A stretch of 64,000 nt of DNA. Source: Pseudomonadota bacterium. Its GTDB lineage: Bacteria; Bdellovibrionota_B; Oligoflexia; Silvanigrellales; Silvanigrellaceae. Position 1 is the first letter of the stretch, and each line of letters starts with the position of its first letter. The position numbers and the translations under genes are program-made. The notes under the pieces were generated by a model, which worked only from the letters and a program-made list of their open reading frames with translations, had not been told where the DNA came from and did no database searches. The DNA lies in contig JBDLRP010000041.1 of the NCBI GenBank assembly GCA_039799905.1, forward strand, positions 64,001 through 128,000, in the 5' to 3' direction. Shown one piece after another: positions 22,050-34,210 of the stretch.

Positions 22050-23069
22050 TTACTGCTGAGTCGTTCCGTTTGCTGGGCGCGGCTGCAAAACGGGGCCCTG
22101 TTGAGTCGGATTTTGCGAACTCGGGTTTGGTAAAGTCGAGGGCTGTTGTACCGCAGGGTTTTGAGCGCCCGGCTGTTGAACGACACCTCCGCCACCCGGA
22201 TTTTGAGTCGTCGGGTTTTGGGTTGTTGGATTCGGTAACGTCGGATTCTGCACAGTCGGATTCTGTGTTGTCGGATTTGGCAAAGTTCCCGGCAGACCAA
22301 CCGGTGGTTTGCCACCCTTAGATGATCCGGCAGGACTTCCCACACCACACAGACCAGGCATCACATAAACTTTTGGATAAAAACCGCTCTCAAGGTCAAC
22401 TTGGTCGGACGCACTGCGATCCAGCCCTTCGTTCACCACACGCTGGATGTCGACAATAACTCCTACTGTCACATCATGCGACCGGACCTCATAATACGGT
22501 GTGCCGTTAAAAGCCGACCCTTGCTGCGAAAACACTCTGAAAATGGCTCTTCCGCTGGGAAGTGAGTTGTAGCAGCGTTTTCGAAAGCGGGGGCTGTTCG
22601 GTGGAATCTGAAACACATCTACGACTGCAGACTGGCCTTCAGCACGCGGGGTTCCAGGCGATGACGTTCCCGGTGTAGACCAGAAACCACGACGGACAAC
22701 GCCGCGCATTTCGTAGTTGGCTGGATCGATGTACGAATTCTGGCAGGTGTCTGGATGCGGAAATGGTTCAGGGTTGTTCGCATAGCTTGGGTCCCGAGAA
22801 CCATCCAAAGGCCTCCGTCCAACCTCGTCCGACGGCATTCCGGCGGCGCATCCGCGGTTGAAAACGTAGAAACCTGTATCGGTCAGCTTGCTGATGAGAT
22901 CGGGCGACATCGTGTTGCGATGGTAGGTGAGCAGCTCTTCTACGAAGCTGTTACCTCCCGAGCCGACCGACTGAGCTGTTGTTTCATTGAACTTGCGCGG
23001 CTGACATCCAACCAATACGAGCGCGGAGATTCCAAACAACCCAGTGGTCCGTGCACAAATCGATCGCAT
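22050..23069 (-). CDS. Hypothetical lipoprotein with C-terminal NPTxQ repeats
   Basis: MRSICARTT...LVLVGC lipobox; Cys-containing globular part; Pro/Gln/Thr pentapeptide tail. ORF is open back to 23135. Confidence 0.7.
   Translation of the reverse strand: MRSICARTTGLFGISALVLVGCQPRKFNETTAQSVGSGGNSFVEELLTYHRNTMSPDLISKLTDTGFYVFNRGCAAGMPSDEVGRRPLDGSRDPSYANNPEPFPHPDTCQNSYIDPANYEMRGVVRRGFWSTPGTSSPGTPRAEGQSAVVDVFQIPPNSPRFRKRCYNSLPSGRAIFRVFSQQGSAFNGTPYYEVRSHDVTVGVIVDIQRVVNEGLDRSASDQVDLESGFYPKVYVMPGLCGVGSPAGSSKGGKPPVGLPGTLPNPTTQNPTVQNPTLPNPTTQNPTTQNPGGGGVVQQPGAQNPAVQQPSTLPNPSSQNPTQQGPVLQPRPANGTTQQ
22198..22285. repeat. Degenerate 15-bp repeats encoding NPT(T/V/L)(Q/P)
   Basis: Translation PNPTTQNPTVQNPTLPNPTTQNPTTQNP. 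Confidence 0.75.
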
Positions 23070-23227
23070 ACGCGTATCCTCCGTCAGCTCGGTCAAGTCT
23101 CTCGCTCCGAGCTCGTTCGTCGGGTCTTCGGACATCCGTGACTCAAACTTGAGAAGAATTTCCGACCCATAATGACGTTGTGATGCTCAACCCTAAAGTC
23201 ATTCCACCCTTGTCAAGTCGCCAAAAA

Positions 23228-24910
23228 CTAAAATACTTTCTCAATAAAAACAGAGGAATGAAAGCCATTCAAGGTAACCTCCGTTTGCAGGGCCTTGGCA
23301 GAGTCGGAATTGACAAAAAGTCGTCCGAGAGAACCAAATTGCACACCAGTGCCAACTTTCAAACTCGCTGGCCGGCGTCCGACGAACTGCGTTTGCATCC
23401 GCGAGACAATCCATACCAACTCCGCAGAGCCGAAAATCGTGCTTGATTTTGCTGTAAGACCCAGTTCACCCTGAGCTGCTGCTGAGAACAAAAAATGTTG
23501 ACCAAGCGGGACTGTCGTCCCCAAACTTCCACCCAAAACAAATTCTCGCGCTCTAATTTGCAAGTCGCCCTGAGGAAGCCCAACTGCGGATTTGAAATCT
23601 CCATCACTCGCAAGAACACCGAGCCTCGCACCCAAGTGATAAACGAACTCGGGGTTGAGGTTCGCTGAAAAACTCCGCCGCAGCTCCGGTTCAATCCAGA
23701 AACCCATCTCGCGCATTCCAATCTTCGATTCAATTATACTGCTGCCGCTGTTCTTTTCCTCAACCTCGGTCTCAAGCACATATTGAGACTGAACATACAC
23801 GGCATGCGATAAGACTCCGAATCCGGCGCCGGTGCGGAGCCCCAACGTTCCGCTGCCTCCGTATGACGAGCGCAGCGACAAAACCGGAATTCCAGCCACC
23901 GCCCCGCCTCGGAAAAACAAAAAAACAGAGGACTTCTCTTTCAATTTCTCGACGTCTTCCTTGATCCTCTCACGTTCAAATCTCATTACATCGAACTGAA
24001 ACTGAGCTGTCAGAATGACAAATGCCTCACGCAGTCTCGTGTTGAATTCCTCTGTTCTTTTTCCACGCCCGTTCTTATTGACAATCCAACAGATAGATTT
24101 GGATTTATTGGCACACATCATGGCTTCACGCTGAGAAATCTCGCGAAGTCGGAAGCGGCTTTCGCTCTGCTCAAATCTCGCCTCAACAAAAGAAAGTTGT
24201 GAGGGCGGCGGAGGAAAACTCACCTCCGGTGTGCCTACTTCGGCATATCCACGCAGTCCAAATTGATCGAATTGAATAAGATTGCGTGTCACCGACGACA
24301 AAAATGGCAATTGGTCGTAAAGCGAGGCTGCGAGCAGTCGGACAAACGATCTGAAGCGTAACAGCCGCACTCGATATTCTGTCCATGGAATCAGTTTTTG
24401 TGCCTCACACTTTTCTTCAAGCAGAGGTTCGCCGGAGGGCCCTTTGTCGGACAGTTGTCGTGCGCGGCAAATTTCAGCGCGAATGACGTCTGAATTATCG
24501 AGTTTGTCCCTGCGAAGGGTGAGAATCCACTCATCGAATTTCCTCAGCTGTCGAAAATCCTCAACTTCACCTGCAACTTTCATCCTGCAGTTAACCTCGG
24601 ATGCGATTCCAAAACCCCACGGTCCCTGACCGTGCAAAAAAGCCTCTTTCCAAACTTTGCAGGCCGTTTGAAACTGCTCTTGACGCACCGAATCAATAGA
24701 CGAGTCGAATAGTTCTGGATCGAAGTCGATCCCCAAACGGACAGACTCGAATGGCAGGGGTTGCTCTCCGGACTGCTGTGCTTCGGCGTTGGTCAGAAAC
24801 GAAAACTGAGAAATGACAAACAGGGTGACAAAAACGATACCGCCAACACTTTTTTCTCCAAATGTTGGTGTGATAAACTGCAGGAGATCTTTGAGCTTTG
24901 GGTGTACCAT
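23228..24910 (-). CDS. Hypothetical exported protein with C-terminal outer-membrane beta-barrel-like domain
   Basis: Signal ending AEA; last ~230 aa show alternating hydrophobic/Gly strands; ends FIEKVF (terminal Phe). Start uncertain. Confidence 0.65.
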
Positions 24911-24947
24911 TGAAATAAGATTAAACAAGCGAATCGGTGTAAACAAG

Positions 24948-25784
24948 ATGGCTGGGCTACATATTTTGTCACTACTCACTAGCATTACAGTTCATACTGG
25001 GGTTCTTTTTGCTCTTCTGATGCCGGCAACTGCGCTGTCGTCACGTTGTCCGAAACAGGCTGATTTCATCTTCAGGGAAGGTGATACTCTGTCGGAAGTC
25101 TTGTGGTTTCTCGGTTCAGAACCCGTCTATGGAAAACTAGGCTGGATTGAGCGGACTTGGAAACTGAATCCCCAGCTTGCGCATCTGCGCGGAAAAGAAA
25201 TTCCACCCGGGACACGCGTGAAGATTCCGTTGAAAAGTTGCCCCTTGAAAGGCGGCTGGACACTTCAAAACGGCGAGCTCATTTCCCCCTATCACCATCG
25301 AAAGGCAACGCCGGACACAGTGAGTGAACCGACTCCATCACCCACAGCATTGCCGACACCTTCACCAATGCCAACTGCATCGCCAACTGCGGCGCCTTCG
25401 CCTTCGCCTTCGCCTTCGCCTTCGCCTTCGCCAACGCCAACGCCAACGCCGACGCCTTCGCCAACGCCGACGCCTTCGCCAACGCCGACGCCTTCGCCAA
25501 CGCCGACACCTTCGCCAACGCCGACACCTTTGCCAACGCCGACTGCTTCACCAAAGCCGACTGCATCCCCCGCTGCTGCACCCGCATCGAGGCCCACGCC
25601 GAAAGTGTCCCCCAAGCCAACTGCGGCGCCTACGTTTAGCCCCAAAAAGAAGTTGAAACCGACCGAAAAGCTGAGACAAAACATCAGAGAGTCAAAAGAA
25701 GTATTCGAGAAAAGTCAGAGCAAAGAACAACTGTTTCTTGAGAAACTCAAAAGTGATGACGATTTTCGAATTCAAAACCCATAA
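24948..25784 (+). CDS. LysM-domain exported protein with Pro/Thr/Ser linker
   Basis: [11 protein letters not shown]...LNPQL...[11 protein letters not shown]ysM pattern, PT/PS repeats, charged C-terminal helix. Confidence 0.75.
25393..25542. repeat. Compound 6-bp/18-bp tandem repeat encoding a PS/PT linker
   Basis: (cgcctt)x6, (cgccaa)x3, then about 5 copies of cgccgacgccttcgccaa. Confidence 0.92.
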
Positions 25785-25949
25785 TTTTCGATAGTTAATC
25801 ACACCAAGTTCAAAGCGCCGTCCCTAACTACCTTTCTCCCTAAGCTAAACATATCCCCAGATAATCCGATGCAGAGATACAGGGGAGAAGGAATGGCCGA
25901 GGCCGAAAGTATCAGAAACGGCAAAGTTGTGTTGTTTGATCGTTCCGCC

Positions 25950-28900
25950 ATGAGTAGGCGGCTGTCATTTCTCGTTCTTATTTGTCTCGGCATATTTTTT
26001 GCCGCCTGTAGCTCAAAAGCAAAGGTTAAGTACGAAAGCCTGGATCGTAAAGAAACGCAGGACAAAATAAACGCTGTCGGCAATAGCGCTGAGGCAGCTG
26101 AATTGTTTAAAAAACTGTCTGACCAATTGAGCGAAGAAGAAAGAAAACCACTCAACGAAATGATTTCGGTCATTATCGACAGAACACCAAGTAAAGCCGA
26201 AAAAAACTTCACCGTCGTAGCCGTTCTTAAGGCAGCCGAATCGATTCGCAGTACCGCAACGCTTCGCGCAAATTTTAAAAATCTTGTCGAACAGATGCTC
26301 GAGTTGAGCAAATTTTTTGATGAATCGTTGAAAGCAATTGCAGATGGTCTAGCTGTCGCGGCCGGTGAAAATAAAACTGTTTTCCTCTCGCAAGCTGAGT
26401 TTTTGCGAAAACGTGCCATTGCACAGACTGACCTACTTTTGACGATTGAATCGCTTTTATCAAAGGTCAACTCTGAAGGCGTTTTGGCTTCATCAGGCGC
26501 CTGGGGGAGTCTCCCGGCTGACGTGACAGCTGCAAAAGATTACTTGGAGATCCTTTTCAAGATTGCAGCGTCTGCATCTGCACAGGACGTTGCAAAGTGG
26601 ATTGACCGCACAAAAGATGAGAATATCAGCGCGCTGTTACTGCAAGGAATCAGGCCGATTTCGGCGAACGATTCGCAGCTGCCATTCATGGTAAAAGTGC
26701 AAAACGTCATTCCACAAGACACACTACTCATCTTCAACAGTCTCATGGCAGTCTATACGTCAGATGCCACAGCACAAAATACCAAAGTATCACTCGCCGA
26801 AGCTTTGAAGAAATCACTCGTGCTCAAGTCAGCTCTTCAGCCGTCTTTTTTTGCCTTGACCGCGGAATCTTTGAAGCGGACCAACTCTCAGATCTTTTTA
26901 AACGCTCTCGCGGACTCGATTGATCGAACAGGCGGGGAAGGCTTCTTTCTCCAGCCGCAGTACACAACCAGAAACCTGAGTGCGTTTGTGATTCCGGGCT
27001 GCGTCCTTCCCGGATCTTCAGGAGAATCGGTGACCTTTTCGTTCAGTTGGAAGAAGTCTGGCAACGTGATTCTTGAATTCACTCCACCGTCGACGGTCAG
27101 ACAAAACTCCGCCGGCGTTCTATTCGAGGTCGACGCTCAGGCACAATGCAGCGTCAGAGTGTTCGTCAGCGGGAATCAGGTTGCTGAATTGAACAGTGAA
27201 TTGGTGACAGTTCGCTCGGCGGCGCCGAGTTTTGCGTCCGGTGATCCACCAATCGTGCAGTCGTTCGCGATCAAAAAATCTGGCAGCTTTCTGTACAAAG
27301 TGAACGAGCAGGATGCGATAGCGGATATCAATACGTTCTATCGGGTCACGACTCAGCCGCAACACGGGAGTGTAAGCCAGAGCGAAGTCGGGTTTTTCGA
27401 CTATCGTCCGATTGCTAATTATGTGGGAGCCGATTCCTTCGGTTTTGTCGCATGCAATCCGGATGATGTCTGTAGTTCGGAAAAACTCATCACATTCAAC
27501 ATCAGCGAAGGGAATCTGAGCCCTCAGTTAGAAAGATTCATCATACCTCCGCAAAATAAATTGGGAGCCGGAATTGCCATGAGTCAATCATCTGTATTGA
27601 CTGATGTGCAGGTGGTGGTCATCGATGACGACATTTTAACTTCTTCGTGTGCAGTGCCAAATGTGATTGTCACGTCAGGAAATCTGGCGGTCATACCTCA
27701 GGCCAATATTGAAATCAGCGGAACCTATCCCTTCTGCAAGCTCAAGTTGACTCCCGCGGCAGGACCTGGAGGACTAGGCAGTGCAACCCTGACACTGAAA
27801 CTCGATGACCAAATCAATCCACCGGTTACATCTGACTTCAACGTTACGGTATTCAGCTCTACCCCCCAATTTGTTTTACCGGAAGCGCCCACCACCTTTA
27901 CCGTCAACAAGAATTCAGGCGCGAACACACTTCAACTCAGTGCATTGGTCGATCCTGATGCTGCACTGTTTACGACCCCGCAAACAACAACTTATTCAGT
28001 CACAAGCTCGCCTGCATTGGGGAGCGTATCGGCTGCATCGACTGTTCCGGCAGCCGGATTCGGTAGCATCACGTACACCACACCCAGTTCGCAGCCAAAC
28101 ACTCAGGCGAATCAAACTACATCCTTTTCATACTTAGCCTGTGACAACTCCTCGACACCGAATTGTTCGCCAACGCGCACTGTCAGCGTGAACATCATCA
28201 ACAATCCGCCAACGATATCTGCGATAGGCGATCTCAGTTTCAACGAAGATACACTTTCGACTGTGCAAAGTTTTACAATCAGCGATCCCGATGACACACG
28301 AAGCTGTGCTGATTTCAACTCAGCAGGAAATAAGATTTCCAGTGACACCACCATAATTCCAACGAGCGGAATCATTGTAGGAGGCACGGGAACAAACTGC
28401 ACAGTTCAAATTGATTCTGAAGCGAATGGCAGCGGCGGTCCCGTCACCGTCACACTGAGTTTACCTCACACAGTGCCGGTCCAACGGAGTTTTTCCGTCA
28501 CAGTTCTGCCTGTCAACGACGCTCCGACTGCCGTTCAGCTGTCGAATGCGACGATCGTTGAAAACAATCTGGCAAATGCTTTTATTGGCACCCTGAGCAC
28601 CACGGATCCTGATTCGGACGATTCATTTACCTACACTCTTGGAGGAGCCGACGCAGCTGCATTCACCATCAGCGGCAGCAACTTGCTAATCAATGCACCG
28701 GCAGATTTCGATACAAAATCCTCTTTCGCGATTACAATCACAAGCACGGACGCCGACGGACTCTCGATTGCAGGAGTTCCTTTTACCATCACAGTCATCA
28801 ACATCAACGAATCGCCCGCGTTCACAAGCACGGGCGAAACGCTTGTGCAGGTGAGTGAACAGGAAGTCAACCGCACTATCACTCTGGCAACTGCGACAGA

Positions 28901-31556
28901 TGCAGACAACCCAACACTCACTGCAGAGCTTGTTGGCAGCGGACCAAGCTCAGGAACACTGACAGGATTTCCAGTCACTCTGACCTCCGGAGGCACGGCA
29001 CAAACCGTGACTTATGCGCCCACAGCGGGTCAGCTGGGTGTCTTCACTTTCCAATACAGAGTCTGCGATGCTGCCCCGCTTTGCACGGAAGTCAAAACTG
29101 TTTCAATTGAAGTGCTTGGCAAAACTCCCGTGCTCAATGGTGCCGCGCTGAACAGCAGCTTCAACGTTGAGACTTCGGAAAGCGTCTCGATTGCTCTTGA
29201 CGGTGTGATTGATCCGGATGCCGTGCGGCTCGCCCAAAGCCTCAGCTACACAGTCACACTGACAAACAGCCTCGGCACTGCGCCGACAGGATTTGCGGCT
29301 GCGACCACCGGCACGGGTTCTGTCACCTTCACTGCCGGCGCAAGCAGCGGAGTTGAAGTCCTAAAGTACAAAGCATGCGATTCAAATGCGACTCCCAACT
29401 GCAGCTCTGAAAAATCAGTGACAATTAACATCGGAACGGCAAACAGTCCGTTCGAGGTGACGGCCGGAAGCAGAAGCGTTGCCATCGGAAATGCAAACAC
29501 AGGAACCGTTACACTCGGACAATTTGCGGATCCAATTACACCTGCAGCAACACTTGTTTACGTTGTCACGCAAAACGCTGCACGCCTTTCGAGTGTCAGC
29601 GGACTCAACCCCGCAACAGGAACGCAGACGGTCACCTACAGCCGACCTGATCAATCTGCAGGAACTGAGGTTGTCGCTTACAAAGCCTGTACAACGGGTG
29701 TCACTCCACAGCGATGTTCACCTGAGATTGTTGTTGAGGTCAGCCGGACGACCGACATTGCCGCCCCCACTCTGGCGGGTGGTGATTCACTTGTGGTCAT
29801 CAGCGAAACTGCCGGCACCGGCGGAGGCTCAGTCAATATTTCATTGGCGGGAGCCACATCCGCTGGACATCCGGAGTTCACCTTGACGTACAGTCTTGTG
29901 CAGGGCCCACAAAACAGAACCGGAGTCGCGTTGGTCGACGGCCCCGTCGCAACGCTCGCGACACTACCCGCCAATGCAAACGCCACGACCACTACGGTGA
30001 GCTACACACTACGCAACGATCTCTTTGCAGGAACATCCGACCAAATCATCTATCAGGTCTGCCAGAATTCAACACCTATCCTCTGCTCAAGTAGAACAGT
30101 TTCAATTGCAGTGATTGCAGCCAACGACCCAACAACGGGAACGATCTCAACCCTCGATTCCAATACTCCGCCGCTCAAACTGACAGGCGCAGAAAGTGGC
30201 AGCAAAACTTTCAACATGAATCTCACGCTTGCAGACAGCGACAGCATTGTTGCCTGCAACAGCGTGACGGTTATCTCGTCGGCGCCAAGCCTGATCGCCG
30301 CCTCGACTGTCAGTGAAGCAGGTCCATGCACGTTCACACTCACCTCGACTGCAGGACTCTCCGGTGATGCGGATATCACTTTGCAGCTCGGTGGTTCGAC
30401 GATGAAAATCAACGCGGACCAAACTTCATTCCGCACAAGTGTTCTTGCACTCGATAACTCTTCTCCCAAACGTGCCATCCATGTTTGCAACGGCTCGAGC
30501 GTGATAGTCGGACAAGGGCCTGACTCTTCCAACCAATCCATCGACGGTATTGCAGCCTGCAAAGATTTTGTTGACTCGGGCTGGGACGCGACTGTCGCGC
30601 TCAATGAGAATCAATATTTCCGTTCTATCGACCGCAGTAAACTGCCTGATCCGCGCAATTATTGCATTGGCTTCAAACTGTTCGGGTTTCAGGGCATGGC
30701 GCTGTGCGGCAATGGAAGCGAGCCGCTCAACCTGCACCGCAACGTCGGCACTCTGCTGGTGAATGCATCCACAGAGCCCGCAACGGGTTATCGATTGTTT
30801 CCCGATCCAGTGAAAGATCATGACGGACAAACCGTCGGAACGTCAGGCATCAAAAAATTGCTGACACGTCCGGCCAATCCGTGCGGAACCTCCGGTGCGA
30901 CAGTTGCATCACGCATTGTTGATTGTTCCGTGCAAAATCCAACGACTTCTTTTTGGGACGGCAGCGTTAAAGGAAACACCGGCCAAGGGCTCTGGCGTCT
31001 TGTGACGGTCAAAGCCATAGCCGACGGCGATTGTGCGTCGGGCTGCACCGAAGTGTGGCGGGACGAACGCACAGGATTGCTGTGGAGCGACGTGATTGTC
31101 GACAACAGCGCAGATGCTGTCGACACCTACAACTGGTGCAAGGCATCGGGCAACAGCAACGCAGCAGATGCCCCCAGTCAGGAAATTGATGCAACAGTAT
31201 GTGCAAGCGCGGCAAATCAAAACCAGACAACCCCTACCAGCGTATGTGCAGAGGATGACGTCGCCCCTAGTGTTTTCGCCCTTCTCGATGCAAGGCAACT
31301 GCTCTCGCTCGGCGACCTGAGATTGAACACGACGCCTAAAGTCCGCTGGTGGTTGCCGAGCCGCGCCGATTATTTGCGTGCAGAACGGCACGGTCTGCGC
31401 TTTGTCTTGCCCAACTTCAACAATGAATTCTGGACGGCAACGGTCAGCAGTGCGGCCTCAGGCAACGCTTGGACATTTGATGGCGGAGCCGGAGGAAAAT
31501 TATCGACGGCCGCGCGCACTGCCAGCAAAAAAGTGCGCTGCGTGGGGTCACCATGA
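25950..31556 (+). CDS. Giant surface lipoprotein/adhesin: helical N-region, Ig-like (Big_9/cadherin) repeats, C-terminal DUF1566/Lcl-like domain
   Basis: FAAC lipobox; repeated Y/FxxC...C Ig modules, PVNDAP linkers, cadherin-like TDPDSDDSFTY...DFDTK; C-terminal WRDERTGLLWS...WWLPSR...FWTAT...AW...VRCV. ORF is open from 25869. Confidence 0.85.
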   Translation: MSRRLSFLVLICLGIFFAACSSKAKVKYESLDRKETQDKINAVGNSAEAAELFKKLSDQLSEEERKPLNEMISVIIDRTPSKAEKNFTVVAVLKAAESIRSTATLRANFKNLVEQMLELSKFFDESLKAIADGLAVAAGENKTVFLSQAEFLRKRAIAQTDLLLTIESLLSKVNSEGVLASSGAWGSLPADVTAAKDYLEILFKIAASASAQDVAKWIDRTKDENISALLLQGIRPISANDSQLPFMVKVQNVIPQDTLLIFNSLMAVYTSDATAQNTKVSLAEALKKSLVLKSALQPSFFALTAESLKRTNSQIFLNALADSIDRTGGEGFFLQPQYTTRNLSAFVIPGCVLPGSSGESVTFSFSWKKSGNVILEFTPPSTVRQNSAGVLFEVDAQAQCSVRVFVSGNQVAELNSELVTVRSAAPSFASGDPPIVQSFAIKKSGSFLYKVNEQDAIADINTFYRVTTQPQHGSVSQSEVGFFDYRPIANYVGADSFGFVACNPDDVCSSEKLITFNISEGNLSPQLERFIIPPQNKLGAGIAMSQSSVLTDVQVVVIDDDILTSSCAVPNVIVTSGNLAVIPQANIEISGTYPFCKLKLTPAAGPGGLGSATLTLKLDDQINPPVTSDFNVTVFSSTPQFVLPEAPTTFTVNKNSGANTLQLSALVDPDAALFTTPQTTTYSVTSSPALGSVSAASTVPAAGFGSITYTTPSSQPNTQANQTTSFSYLACDNSSTPNCSPTRTVSVNIINNPPTISAIGDLSFNEDTLSTVQSFTISDPDDTRSCADFNSAGNKISSDTTIIPTSGIIVGGTGTNCTVQIDSEANGSGGPVTVTLSLPHTVPVQRSFSVTVLPVNDAPTAVQLSNATIVENNLANAFIGTLSTTDPDSDDSFTYTLGGADAAAFTISGSNLLINAPADFDTKSSFAITITSTDADGLSIAGVPFTITVININESPAFTSTGETLVQVSEQEVNRTITLATATDADNPTLTAELVGSGPSSGTLTGFPVTLTSGGTAQTVTYAPTAGQLGVFTFQYRVCDAAPLCTEVKTVSIEVLGKTPVLNGAALNSSFNVETSESVSIALDGVIDPDAVRLAQSLSYTVTLTNSLGTAPTGFAAATTGTGSVTFTAGASSGVEVLKYKACDSNATPNCSSEKSVTINIGTANSPFEVTAGSRSVAIGNANTGTVTLGQFADPITPAATLVYVVTQNAARLSSVSGLNPATGTQTVTYSRPDQSAGTEVVAYKACTTGVTPQRCSPEIVVEVSRTTDIAAPTLAGGDSLVVISETAGTGGGSVNISLAGATSAGHPEFTLTYSLVQGPQNRTGVALVDGPVATLATLPANANATTTTVSYTLRNDLFAGTSDQIIYQVCQNSTPILCSSRTVSIAVIAANDPTTGTISTLDSNTPPLKLTGAESGSKTFNMNLTLADSDSIVACNSVTVISSAPSLIAASTVSEAGPCTFTLTSTAGLSGDADITLQLGGSTMKINADQTSFRTSVLALDNSSPKRAIHVCNGSSVIVGQGPDSSNQSIDGIAACKDFVDSGWDATVALNENQYFRSIDRSKLPDPRNYCIGFKLFGFQGMALCGNGSEPLNLHRNVGTLLVNASTEPATGYRLFPDPVKDHDGQTVGTSGIKKLLTRPANPCGTSGATVASRIVDCSVQNPTTSFWDGSVKGNTGQGLWRLVTVKAIADGDCASGCTEVWRDERTGLLWSDVIVDNSADAVDTYNWCKASGNSNAADAPSQEIDATVCASAANQNQTTPTSVCAEDDVAPSVFALLDARQLLSLGDLRLNTTPKVRWWLPSRADYLRAERHGLRFVLPNFNNEFWTATVSSAASGNAWTFDGGAGGKLSTAARTASKKVRCVGSP

Positions 31557-32743
31557 AAACAATCAACATTCAAAAAAATAAATTTCTCAGAACGGGTGGA
31601 CTGACACTCATGCTAATGTCCGCTGTCGGATTGCTGATGCTCACGCAGGCCAAAGCCGTCACAGCCGCAGACATTTGCAAACAACAAACAATCTTCGGAA
31701 TTGTCGGTACAAAATCATGTGTGGGGCAGGACGACGGCAATGGTGTTGTGCCTGCAGTGAGCACACTCACCAGTGTTGAAAACTTACCCAATGTGCCAGC
31801 GGTTTTTTCTGCAACCGATCCAACAGGTGCCAGCGAACTTGCAAAGGTCTGCAATTCGCAAAATCTGTTGGGTGATGCAGGAACGGCAGTCTGCAGCAAA
31901 CGCGCTGCCATGAACCACCGCAACAAAGCCGGAACGCAGTCTGTGCTGAGCGAAGATTTTACGACAACAGCTCCCAACGGCAGGCTCGTTGCGCAGGTGA
32001 AAGATGACGACGGCGGGAATGGCACGAACGTCAATAAATTCAATCGCACAGGGCTTAAAGTCTGCGGAACAAACGCCCCACATGACACGCTTGCGGAGAA
32101 AATTGCTGATTGCCTTTCTCAAAATGGCGAAGCAAAATCCAGCTGGGCCGGCATCGACGGCAATGCGGGCGAAGGCAACTGGACACTCGTGCAAGTGCTC
32201 GATACCGACGGTACAGCAGACGATGATGGAACTCTTTGCGATCCCGCAGGCACTCCCGCTGCAACCTGCACCGAAATTTGGCGCGACGATCGCACCGGGT
32301 TGCTGTGGTCGGACCGTGTCAGCGACGAAGCGACCGACGTCAATTGGTGCAAAGCAAGCGGAGCCAACAGCGGTACAACGTGTGCAGACGTAGCCAACCA
32401 GCCGGACCCTCCCGAGAGCCTTTGTGCGGAGGGGGGCACTCCTGCGCGAACGATCGGTGCTTCATTCAACGGTGCCAAAGGAGGCTTTAGGCTTTCAACG
32501 GGAACAATCAACGTGCGCTGGTGGCTGCCCACCCGTGCCGACTGGATGCAGGCCGAAGAAAATGGAATCCGCTTTGTGCTGCCCAACATCGCCGGCGATT
32601 ATTGGACCTCGACCACAGATTCATCCGACCCCAACAACAAAGCATGGATTTTCAAAAACAGCAGCAACGCAGGCGGCGGATTTGAAACTTTCAATAAGAC
32701 GGGAGTGGATATCTCGACACGCTGCATTGGACAAGCTCTGTAA
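31553..32743 (+). CDS. Secreted DUF1566/Lcl-like protein, paralogous to the adhesin C-terminus
   Basis: Sec signal ending AKA; WRDDRTGLLWS...WWLPTR...YWTST...AW...TRCI; ATGA overlap with the adhesin. Confidence 0.85.
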   Translation: MKTINIQKNKFLRTGGLTLMLMSAVGLLMLTQAKAVTAADICKQQTIFGIVGTKSCVGQDDGNGVVPAVSTLTSVENLPNVPAVFSATDPTGASELAKVCNSQNLLGDAGTAVCSKRAAMNHRNKAGTQSVLSEDFTTTAPNGRLVAQVKDDDGGNGTNVNKFNRTGLKVCGTNAPHDTLAEKIADCLSQNGEAKSSWAGIDGNAGEGNWTLVQVLDTDGTADDDGTLCDPAGTPAATCTEIWRDDRTGLLWSDRVSDEATDVNWCKASGANSGTTCADVANQPDPPESLCAEGGTPARTIGASFNGAKGGFRLSTGTINVRWWLPTRADWMQAEENGIRFVLPNIAGDYWTSTTDSSDPNNKAWIFKNSSNAGGGFETFNKTGVDISTRCIGQAL

Positions 32744-32794: not shown

Positions 32795-34210
32795 TCAAGG
32801 TGCAAATTCAACACCAAAGTGTTGCAGATGAGCCATGAATGCCGGTGCTGTTTTTTGCATGCATTGCGGCTCTTCAACGCGCACACCGCGTGCCCATGCT
32901 GCAAACACAAGTCCGCTCAAGGCAAAGCGATGATCATGATGTGTCGGCCACGAGCCGACAACCTGCTCGGCCTTGAGTTGCGCGCGGACGGCAAAACCAT
33001 CTTTGCGTTCTTCAACAGGAATGCCGAGCGCGCTGCAGTTTTGACAAAACGCTGCAATGCGATCGGATTCATGATGGCGGATATGCGCGATTCCTGAAAC
33101 TTCGACCGGAACACCGGTCACAAGCGACATGACTCCCACTGTCAGCGCCTGATCGCTGCAACGCGACAAATCGAGTTGCAACAAAGGGGCAGTCGCACTG
33201 CGACCGCGCGTACCGTAAACAGAAAATTGAGATGTCTGCACTTCAACAGAATAGCCAAATTTCTCGAGTAAACGGATGAACTCAAAATCGGGCTGAAGAG
33301 TGTTGCTGCCAAGATTGCCGACATGCAAATCAACTTTAAGCACACATGCCAATGCCGCATAATAGCAGGCCGTCGAGGCATCGGCCTCGACAGTGTAGTC
33401 GGCAGGCGGTGTCCATTCACCGGCATGCACGGTGAACTTTTCGAGCGAAACATCCGCGTCTATCTGGGCACCAAACTCGCGCAGCATTTGCAGAGTCATG
33501 CGCACATAGTCGGGCTGTACCAAATGATTGAGACGAATGATCCGCACTTCGTTGCGCGAGCCGGCAGCTGCCAAGAGCAGACCGCTGAGGAATTGTCCGG
33601 ACTGCGATCCATCAATACGGCAATATCCGGACAAGCGGGAAACACCCAAAGACAAGGGAAAAACCTTCGCATCCTGCTCCTCTATCCGAGCCCCCAACTC
33701 TCTGAGGGCATCGAGAATGGGTGTGAGCGGACGCCGCGCCAGCTGTTCATGTGCCGAAAGTTGAAAGCGGTTGATCGATGAATCCGGATACACTCTGTTC
33801 CAATTGAGCAGCACTGCAGGCAAAAATCGTGCAAGAGTACCCGCCTGTCCGACGTGAATCTGAACACCGTTGGCCACTGATGCGCTGTTGTGACTTGCTT
33901 TTGATTCCGCAGGAGGCCGCACCAGACAGGCCTCTGGCAGTCGGCTCACATCCAATCGGAAACCGAGCTGCTGCAAGGCAAGAAACCCCCACCAAGTGTC
34001 GTCGGCCAAAAGGGGAGCATGTATCCGGATGGCACGGCCGGCCAGAGCGGCGAGCACTATCGCACGGTTGGTGAAACTTTTTGAACCCGTGACAGAGACG
34101 CGCCACTCACGTTGCGCGCATCCCAACACCCGCACCGACTTGCGCAGCGGTACAGGAATTTGCGCCTCAAACAAAACACGCTTGTCATGCAAACCGTCTG
34201 CAGCGCTCAA
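32795..34210 (-). CDS. aroA: 3-phosphoshikimate 1-carboxyvinyltransferase (EPSP synthase)
   Basis: GSKSFTNRA, GQAGTLARF, SGQFLSGLLL, VEADAS, RHHESDRI, HHDHR. Confidence 0.93.
   Translation of the reverse strand: MSAADGLHDKRVLFEAQIPVPLRKSVRVLGCAQREWRVSVTGSKSFTNRAIVLAALAGRAIRIHAPLLADDTWWGFLALQQLGFRLDVSRLPEACLVRPPAESKASHNSASVANGVQIHVGQAGTLARFLPAVLLNWNRVYPDSSINRFQLSAHEQLARRPLTPILDALRELGARIEEQDAKVFPLSLGVSRLSGYCRIDGSQSGQFLSGLLLAAAGSRNEVRIIRLNHLVQPDYVRMTLQMLREFGAQIDADVSLEKFTVHAGEWTPPADYTVEADASTACYYAALACVLKVDLHVGNLGSNTLQPDFEFIRLLEKFGYSVEVQTSQFSVYGTRGRSATAPLLQLDLSRCSDQALTVGVMSLVTGVPVEVSGIAHIRHHESDRIAAFCQNCSALGIPVEERKDGFAVRAQLKAEQVVGSWPTHHDHRFALSGLVFAAWARGVRVEEPQCMQKTAPAFMAHLQHFGVEFAP

Follow-up and report, generated by a model that had tools for sequence, protein, structure and literature searches.

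The window analysed here is a 64,000-nucleotide stretch of contig JBDLRP010000041.1 (assembly GCA_039799905.1) from a genus within the Silvanigrellaceae, an aquatic or freshwater host. It carries a locus in which the gene for a giant lipoprotein, likely a surface adhesin, overlaps a gene for a shorter, anchorless relative of its own tip, with a LysM-like gene and a divergent outer-membrane protein gene directly upstream. An original prediction, drawn from the sequence without database searches, had described this locus as a surface-fibre system, and all four open reading frames (ORFs) lie at the positions it gave. The features discussed below are as follows.

23228..24910, minus strand: outer-membrane protein (predicted barrel); the ORF is open from 24985 and the true start is uncertain
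24948..25784, plus strand: secreted LysM-like protein, 278 residues, with a LysM-like domain, a Pro/Thr/Ser linker and a conserved charged C-terminal segment
25950..27230, plus strand: giant, signal peptide, lipobox Cys (26007) and conserved, probably helical base; end approximate
27231..30470, plus strand: giant, stalk of immunoglobulin (Ig)/cadherin-like modules with nine Cys pairs; limits approximate, from Pfam and Cys positions
30471..31556, plus strand: giant, tip with two Cys-bridged repeats and an Lcl/DUF1566-like (C-type-lectin-like) head, from sequence comparison
31553..31556, plus strand: ATGA stop/start overlap, suggesting translational coupling
31553..32743, plus strand: anchorless partner, 396 residues, with a cleavable-type signal peptide, two Cys-bridged repeats and an Lcl-like head, from sequence comparison
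32795..34210, minus strand: aroA (EPSP synthase; Pfam E 1e-68), the conserved right-hand boundary of the slot, outside the system

The giant lipoprotein and its anchorless partner

The proposed lipoprotein of about 1870 residues, coupled by an ATGA overlap to a 396-residue secreted protein, is indeed present: the ORF (25869-31556, plus strand) encodes 1,868 residues counted from the ATG at 25950, has a lipobox and overlaps the partner gene at 31553-31556. Its lipobox Cys is kept in all ten homologues checked. The base that follows is probably helical, judging by its sequence pattern, and gave no match in an Atlas search. The stalk matches Pfam Big_9 in five stretches (E 5e-14), with weaker cadherin matches and a tandem-95 repeat match below cut-off, and its nine close Cys pairs probably form disulfides. 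The lipobox, the Ig-like stalk and the terminal lectin-like domain bear out the adhesin-like character suggested for the giant, which is likely a surface adhesin with an Ig/cadherin stalk and an exchangeable tip.

As had been noticed, the short protein is a diverged copy of the giant's end, sharing 37% identity with giant residues 1584-1893 across 333 columns (E 5e-43). Its mature chain matches the last ~360 residues of the giant in register, starting at the giant's first repeat, and the two short Cys-bridged repeats that both chains share are spaced almost identically (58 versus 59 residues). Both signal peptides are of the Sec type, with a lipobox in the giant only, and no lipobox match was found in any of the partner orthologues. 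The partner is therefore anchorless, as claimed, but it is not wholly stalk-less, as it retains the two short repeats. No third copy of tip or partner was found in the locus's own genome, and one homologue of the partner bears a Silvanigrellaceae name.

For comparison we used 12 genomes of the same genus, which are 70-98% complete; with the locus's own genome, which is 94% complete, they make 13 in all. Tip and partner occur in four of the 12 relatives, always adjacent, and thus together in five of five tip-bearing genomes when the own genome is included, and the partner was not found in the eight relatives without an Lcl-like tip. Stop and start codons overlap or abut in all six giant/partner-type junctions examined. 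Core identity is 0.67 within giant tips and 0.65 within partners, versus 0.44 between them; by this measure tips and partners are two separately conserved groups. Tip and partner do show reciprocal losses of residues conserved in the family, at a level not beyond the single-gene background (median about two losses). The in-register match, the repeat spacing and the junction overlap fit co-assembly rather than show it, and on such sequence evidence the partner likely co-assembles with the tip into a mixed head.

Assignment of the tip to DUF1566/Lcl holds for the family but not for direct matches of the two proteins themselves. Matches to Lcl_C/DUF1566 (PF07603) are weak for both the partner (13.5 bits, E 0.089) and the giant (10.2 bits, E 0.93) against a gathering cut-off of 34.9 bits, and the best relative, at 33.4 bits, is still below it. 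At the family level, Lcl_C is matched by 9 of 19 tip-family members (best E 9e-6), and the only PDB match of a 116-sequence tip-family profile is the Lcl-CTD entry 8Q4E (E 0.048), suggesting that the head is distantly related to the C-type-lectin-like fold of Lcl-CTD. Searches with the short tip repeats found no solved structure and no phage match, only unnamed PHROG matches in relatives. A role of the 3' ends as targets of a diversity-generating retroelement was considered and rejected: they have no second copy beyond the paralogue, and RVT_1 has no match in the 94% complete own genome.

DNA of the locus is present in freshwater, lagoon and other aquatic metagenomes from five studies besides possible sources, with runs holding a small share left out of the habitat inference. 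One contig of an independent study (run X7) spans the giant/partner junction. The differences of that related strain cluster at 30570-30660, between the two tip repeats. Promoter and terminator scans returned signals at or below chance.

Recurrent twin genes and a variable slot

The tip family is widespread in Bdellovibrionota: it counts 37 genome loci, and 1,162 representatives reach E 0.001 or better. A typical member is a lipoprotein whose head is preceded by as many as seven copies of the short repeat. The 37 loci comprise 18 tandem pairs, 8 single genes and 11 that are too short to classify. In a tree of 59 rows, from which two near-duplicate pairs and one short fragment were left out, tandem pairs are spread over four lineages; in two of these, first and second genes group as sisters with strong support, and in this genus they do so with support of 92/78. 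The hypothesis that all second genes go back to one origin is rejected (p-AU 1.4e-6), which indicates that in this family overlapping twin genes evolved repeatedly within Bdellovibrionota. Stop and start codons overlap or abut at most of the family's pair junctions, and two heads occur in one chain in 2 of 162 proteins. Nine pairs were also flagged among metagenome loci; one is a 43-residue match only and two are non-adjacent, which leaves 6 of 46, several of them repeating genome loci.

Predatory Bdellovibrionaceae, among them a named epibiotic strain, have the twin genes too; adhesins other than the MAT (mosaic adhesive trimer) fibres of Bdellovibrio bacteriovorus are being sought in these bacteria. 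At two loci of this family (L104:8861-19410 and L103:8888-18532), the twins head an operon with a protein of 1,175-1,277 residues and further genes; one of these large proteins has an NHL match, and the L104 operon follows motAB-like genes.

Within the Silvanigrellaceae genus, the site of the giant is a variable slot. Across the 13 genomes it holds a giant with an Lcl-like tip and partner (five), an RCC1 tip (three) or a tipless end (three), or no giant at all (two). In G001, a complete giant of 2,453 residues ends in RCC1 repeats and has no partner; its final 1,040 residues have a 32% match in an RCC1 lipoprotein that the own genome encodes separately, and this points to recombination as a way in which tips are exchanged. 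RCC1 ends are likewise found in G006 and G009. In G008, G010 and G012 the end comes behind one shared stalk module, next to aroA or with a single gene in between; G008 additionally has tip and partner on another contig. The gene order in G004 is tip, partner, small lipoprotein and aroA, and that in G012 is tipless giant, the same small lipoprotein and aroA; as the two differ by exactly tip and partner, these appear to behave as one unit. Most giants break at contig ends, as they do in seven relatives, so the links from base to tip are in part reconstructed.

The site also occurs empty, with barrel, LysM-like gene and aroA but no giant between them, in G002 and G007. In G011 the barrel abuts aroA, and LysM-like gene, giant and partner lie between ruvC and hisS on several contigs: the LysM-like gene follows ruvC, the partner ends at hisS, and ruvC and hisS are neighbours in the own genome. 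Because the barrel stays behind when the giant is lost or moved, the four-gene cluster is not fixed. The G011 giant has a frame shift after ~1,320 residues (L069:367-4717), which reflects either an error of assembly or a gene that is broken. A 1,259-residue Ig/RCC1 lipoprotein faces a 217-residue barrel-like gene some 13 kb ahead of the window (L116:1587-6194); the lipoprotein is likely a relative of the donor of the G001 RCC1 tip.

The barrel, its paralogues and the export route

The divergent upstream gene had been called barrel-like, and an AlphaFold 2 model of its product from 16 aligned sequences does fold as a barrel (pLDDT 84). The model comprises a Cys-containing alpha/beta N-domain, a 42-residue helix and ten strands (residues 289-519, about 23231-23926), in a chain with a signal peptide and a C-terminal Phe. 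Fold searches, which scarcely probed the N-domain, returned OpcA (2vdf; Z 19.2, root-mean-square deviation 4.1 over 202 residues), Dot/Icm porin I (9nh1; Z 19.3) and OmpT (Z 15.3), and we predict a 10-stranded outer-membrane barrel of the OpcA/OmpT fold class. Autotransporter barrels have 12 strands, TpsB 16 and Slam 14; the ten modelled strands differ from all three, and the best matches are 10-stranded barrels. No TPR or POTRA match was found. Orthologues are present in all 12 same-genus genomes, and always downstream of them lies a genus-wide conserved lipoprotein gene (22050-23135, minus strand, in the window) with a Gln/Pro/Asn-rich tail and without a convincing family match.

The matches of the LysM protein proposed upstream are mixed. 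Five of 18 aligned rows match LysM (best E 1.5e-6; three of the 18 proved unrelated), whereas the window protein has no direct match to PF01476 and instead matches Phage_tail_X (E 2e-4, 21.5 bits versus a cut-off of 22). The gene is matched in 11 of 12 same-genus genomes, weakly and divergently in G009, and it moved together with the giant in G011. In G008 the LysM-like domain is duplicated inside the gene (L066:2688-4118). An apparent FecR-barrel-LysM order in other genera was rejected, as the fourth gene there does not align with LysM.

Three head-to-head barrel/giant modules, paralogous to one another, exist in the genus, and this recurrence suggests that barrel and giant are cognate partners. 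In module 2 (L170:1395-9981, on contig C3 of the own genome), a 682-residue barrel-like gene product faces a 2,223-residue lipoprotein tipped by a DUF5122 propeller; 11 of 12 relatives have the two genes side by side, and module 3 is found in seven. Modules 1 and 2 have homologous barrel N-domains (probability 93.9, E 1.6e-7; cross controls 0.1), and the N-domain of the window's barrel is homologous to those of two other barrel families. The relationship between the bases of modules 2 and 3 is clear (probability 100), and the module-1 base shows a weak, in-register match to them (P 2.8e-4; global score 18 versus a maximum of 12.5 in 30 block shuffles). The expected recurrence of the neighbourhood thus exists as a barrel/giant pairing seen in three modules, and not as a fixed unit of four genes, given G002, G006, G007 and G011.

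A comparable arrangement appears in another genus (g5), where giant FN3 lipoproteins and a thioredoxin-like gene are flanked by genes that carry the same LysM variant and barrel-like ends; this was seen in all eight genomes examined, out of ten with LysM matches and in regions picked around long LysM genes. These barrels were judged mostly by their ends, with one Pfam match (E 0.002), and homology of the LysM-fusion ends to the window's barrel was undetectable, which makes the likeness one of analogy. The multi-LysM genes of this genus (L112, L115, L152-L162, L166) bracket FN3 giants of 2,100 to over 3,500 residues.

The lack of any standard secretion class, as first suggested, did not survive closer inspection. 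The own genome has a type II secretion system (T2SS) operon, with a secretin above cut-off and a gene order that visual inspection gives as gspC,C,D,E,F,G,H,I,J; the two tandem GspC-like genes lie at L172:8538-10755. InvL of Acinetobacter baumannii is a T2SS-dependent lipoprotein with Ig domains and a lectin-like cap (PMC9245377) that also needs GspN (PMC12802150), and Legionella Lcl is a T2SS-secreted, surface-bound trimer with a trimeric Lcl-CTD (PMC11162425). With the operon present and both Ig-plus-lectin lipoproteins and Lcl published as T2SS substrates, no new secretion class is needed, although the T2SS step for surface lipoproteins has itself been termed elusive (PMC9245377).

The resemblance to these precedents is nevertheless partial. 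Like InvL, the giant combines a lipobox anchor, an Ig-like stalk and a lectin-like domain at the C-terminus, with no barrel in the chain and a T2SS in the host. Unlike InvL, it is about four times longer and has an extra base, a swappable tip, an anchorless tip copy and a facing barrel gene, in a host in which GspN was not found; the likeness drawn here is one of architecture. The head, distantly related to Lcl-CTD, is larger and Cys-rich and scores below the Pfam cut-off, whereas Lcl-CTD has no disulfides (PMC11162425); there is no collagen stalk here, and two paralogous chains stand in place of one homotrimer. The MAT fibres, from the same phylum, also have interchangeable tips, including the trimeric C-type-lectin tip Bd2740 (PMC10769870), but the present system has an Ig-like stalk, a lipid anchor and no S74 domain. 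Lipoprotein, hetero-, LysM, barrel and DUF1566 are terms that appear nowhere in the text searched for them, passages of that paper and two supplementary files (PMC10769870). The window's proteins and the tip profile gave no S74 match and no PDB sequence match to the MAT structures.

In Slam/type XI and two-partner secretion (TPS), a barrel gene is encoded beside its cognate surface cargo. The locus shares this adjacency, but its barrel has ten modelled strands rather than 14 or 16 and no TPR or POTRA match, the genes are divergent rather than operonic, and the cargo is a giant Cys-rich lipoprotein. Each building block is known, and tip exchange in the phylum has already been shown by the MAT fibres (PMC10769870). 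In a literature search of incomplete coverage we found no description of an anchorless twin, of repeated barrel/giant pairing or of cognate barrels.

A proposed assembly and its alternatives

The interpretation we favour, tentatively and at a little under an even chance, is a surface adhesin with an exchangeable tip that forms a mixed head with its paralogue, leaves the cell through the T2SS and has its base held or handled by the predicted barrel. The gene overlap would supply giant and partner in matched amounts. Both chains would fold and form disulfides in the periplasm, where the partner would pair in register with the giant's last ~360 residues. Short repeats of this kind probably trimerise. 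The most likely stoichiometry would be a 1+2 trimer, in view of the trimeric Lcl-CTD (PMC11162425) and of fibre-like family members that carry as many as seven of the short repeats; one anchored Ig stalk could then carry an oligomeric head without three giant chains. The T2SS would export the folded lipoprotein in the manner of InvL and PulA, and the partner would travel with it. With ten strands, the barrel is probably too narrow to pass folded domains, and may serve the base as its cognate docking site or chaperone, with the ability to act in trans, while the putative LysM-like protein would tie the assembly to the cell wall. The T2SS operon and the InvL and Lcl precedents favour this order of periplasmic folding and co-assembly, T2SS export and docking or chaperoning by the barrel.

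Since exchange or loss of the tip takes the partner with it, species would differ in ligand specificity, and the ligands are more likely glycans of surfaces, biofilms or hosts than prey. Prey recognition, part of the original prediction, found no support, cultured family members being listed as non-predatory (PMC11656739) and growing chemoorganotrophically (PMC7386786); we call it unsupported rather than disproved, because the genus is known here from metagenome assemblies alone.

A number of observations weigh against the favoured interpretation. Single-gene members are common, at 8 of 26 classifiable loci, so the family as a whole does not depend on pairing, and one clade supplies 11 of the 18 tandem pairs. 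G002, which is 98% complete, keeps an intact barrel with no module-1 giant found; barrel and giant lie apart in G007 and G011, and in a further genus (g3) two barrel homologues (G014, G020) sit in a phosphatase/FecR-like operon with no giant within the stretch fetched. G006 has a giant and no LysM match. The module-1 base has weak homology to its counterparts in the other modules (probability 41), and GspN (PF01203) had no match in the 94% complete own genome. The residue at +2 after the lipidated Cys is Ser in this giant, whereas the Asp found there in 5 of 10 module-1 giants counts for the favoured interpretation. RNA evidence consists of four short contigs from one run, too thin for expression claims.

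The competing explanations address different steps and are not fully exclusive. The partner could be an ordinary tandem duplicate of the tip with its own signal peptide, acting alone as a released or separately attached lectin. The frequency of single-gene members would suit this, as would Lcl, a non-lipidated secreted homotrimer attached to the surface by its own N-terminus (PMC11162425); tandem duplicates, moreover, co-occur and move together for positional reasons, and the reciprocal losses do not exceed background. We nevertheless consider it unlikely, given a conserved stop/start overlap, a length and repeat register that match the tip, the failure to find any partner without a tip, the repeated origin of pairs and the existence of fused double heads. 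A different possibility concerns the barrel, which may be a dedicated exporter of the giant, forming a new two-partner route like Slam or TPS with the LysM-like protein as tether. Three co-duplicated barrel/giant modules, the LysM genes with barrel-like ends that flank giants in genus g5 and the GspN result speak for such a route; a model with only ten strands, like OpcA and OmpT, a Cys-rich cargo that is probably folded before export, the presence of a T2SS and the retention of the barrel without a giant in G002 make it rather improbable.

Barrel and LysM-like protein might also be core envelope genes unrelated to the adhesin, with the giant in an adjoining insertion-prone slot. The barrel is indeed found in 12 of 12 relatives versus 8 of 12 for the giant's base, and there are the empty sites in G002 and G007, the relocation in G011 and the different gene context in genus g3. 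This reading is likewise rather improbable, as two further paralogous barrels face giants with related bases and the LysM-like gene moved with the giant in G011. Finally, the giant could be a periplasm-facing envelope scaffold at the inner membrane rather than an external adhesin. Asp at +2, found in half of the ten homologues, is an inner-membrane retention signal in E. coli, and three relatives have giants that end without a tip. Swappable ends of the lectin-like, RCC1 and propeller kinds are, however, typical of external ligand binding, and the giants here have lectin-like, RCC1 and DUF5122 propeller ends; an extended stalk of ten or more Ig modules would also probably exceed the usual periplasm, and we regard the scaffold as very unlikely.

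Beyond the favoured adhesin lies a broader proposal, which we consider unlikely: an undescribed Silvanigrellaceae display system with its own base-recognising barrel per giant, a thrice-duplicated pair and LysM tethers, in which anchorless paralogues make a hetero-oligomeric lectin head that evolved independently several times in Bdellovibrionota. With a mixed lectin head, a single anchored stalk would, if the idea is right, gain avidity or dual specificity in a new way. Surface placement of very large lipoproteins in Gram-negative bacteria is only partly understood, and three cognate barrel/giant pairs in one genus would offer a natural swap experiment for an accessory factor.

The own genome holds further giants, whose tips are not common to their downstream genes. 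Another family of lipoproteins of 1,500-2,100 residues (L281:3508-16353, L282:1235-5920) includes two in tandem and shares a C-terminal domain, with no Pfam match in the two members scanned. A 6,167-residue lipoprotein (L279:412-13090 and L171, on contig C19 of the own genome) has no Pfam match in its first 4,000 residues; it is preceded by a 196-residue barrel-like gene and followed by an overlapping 521-residue gene and a DsbA-like gene.

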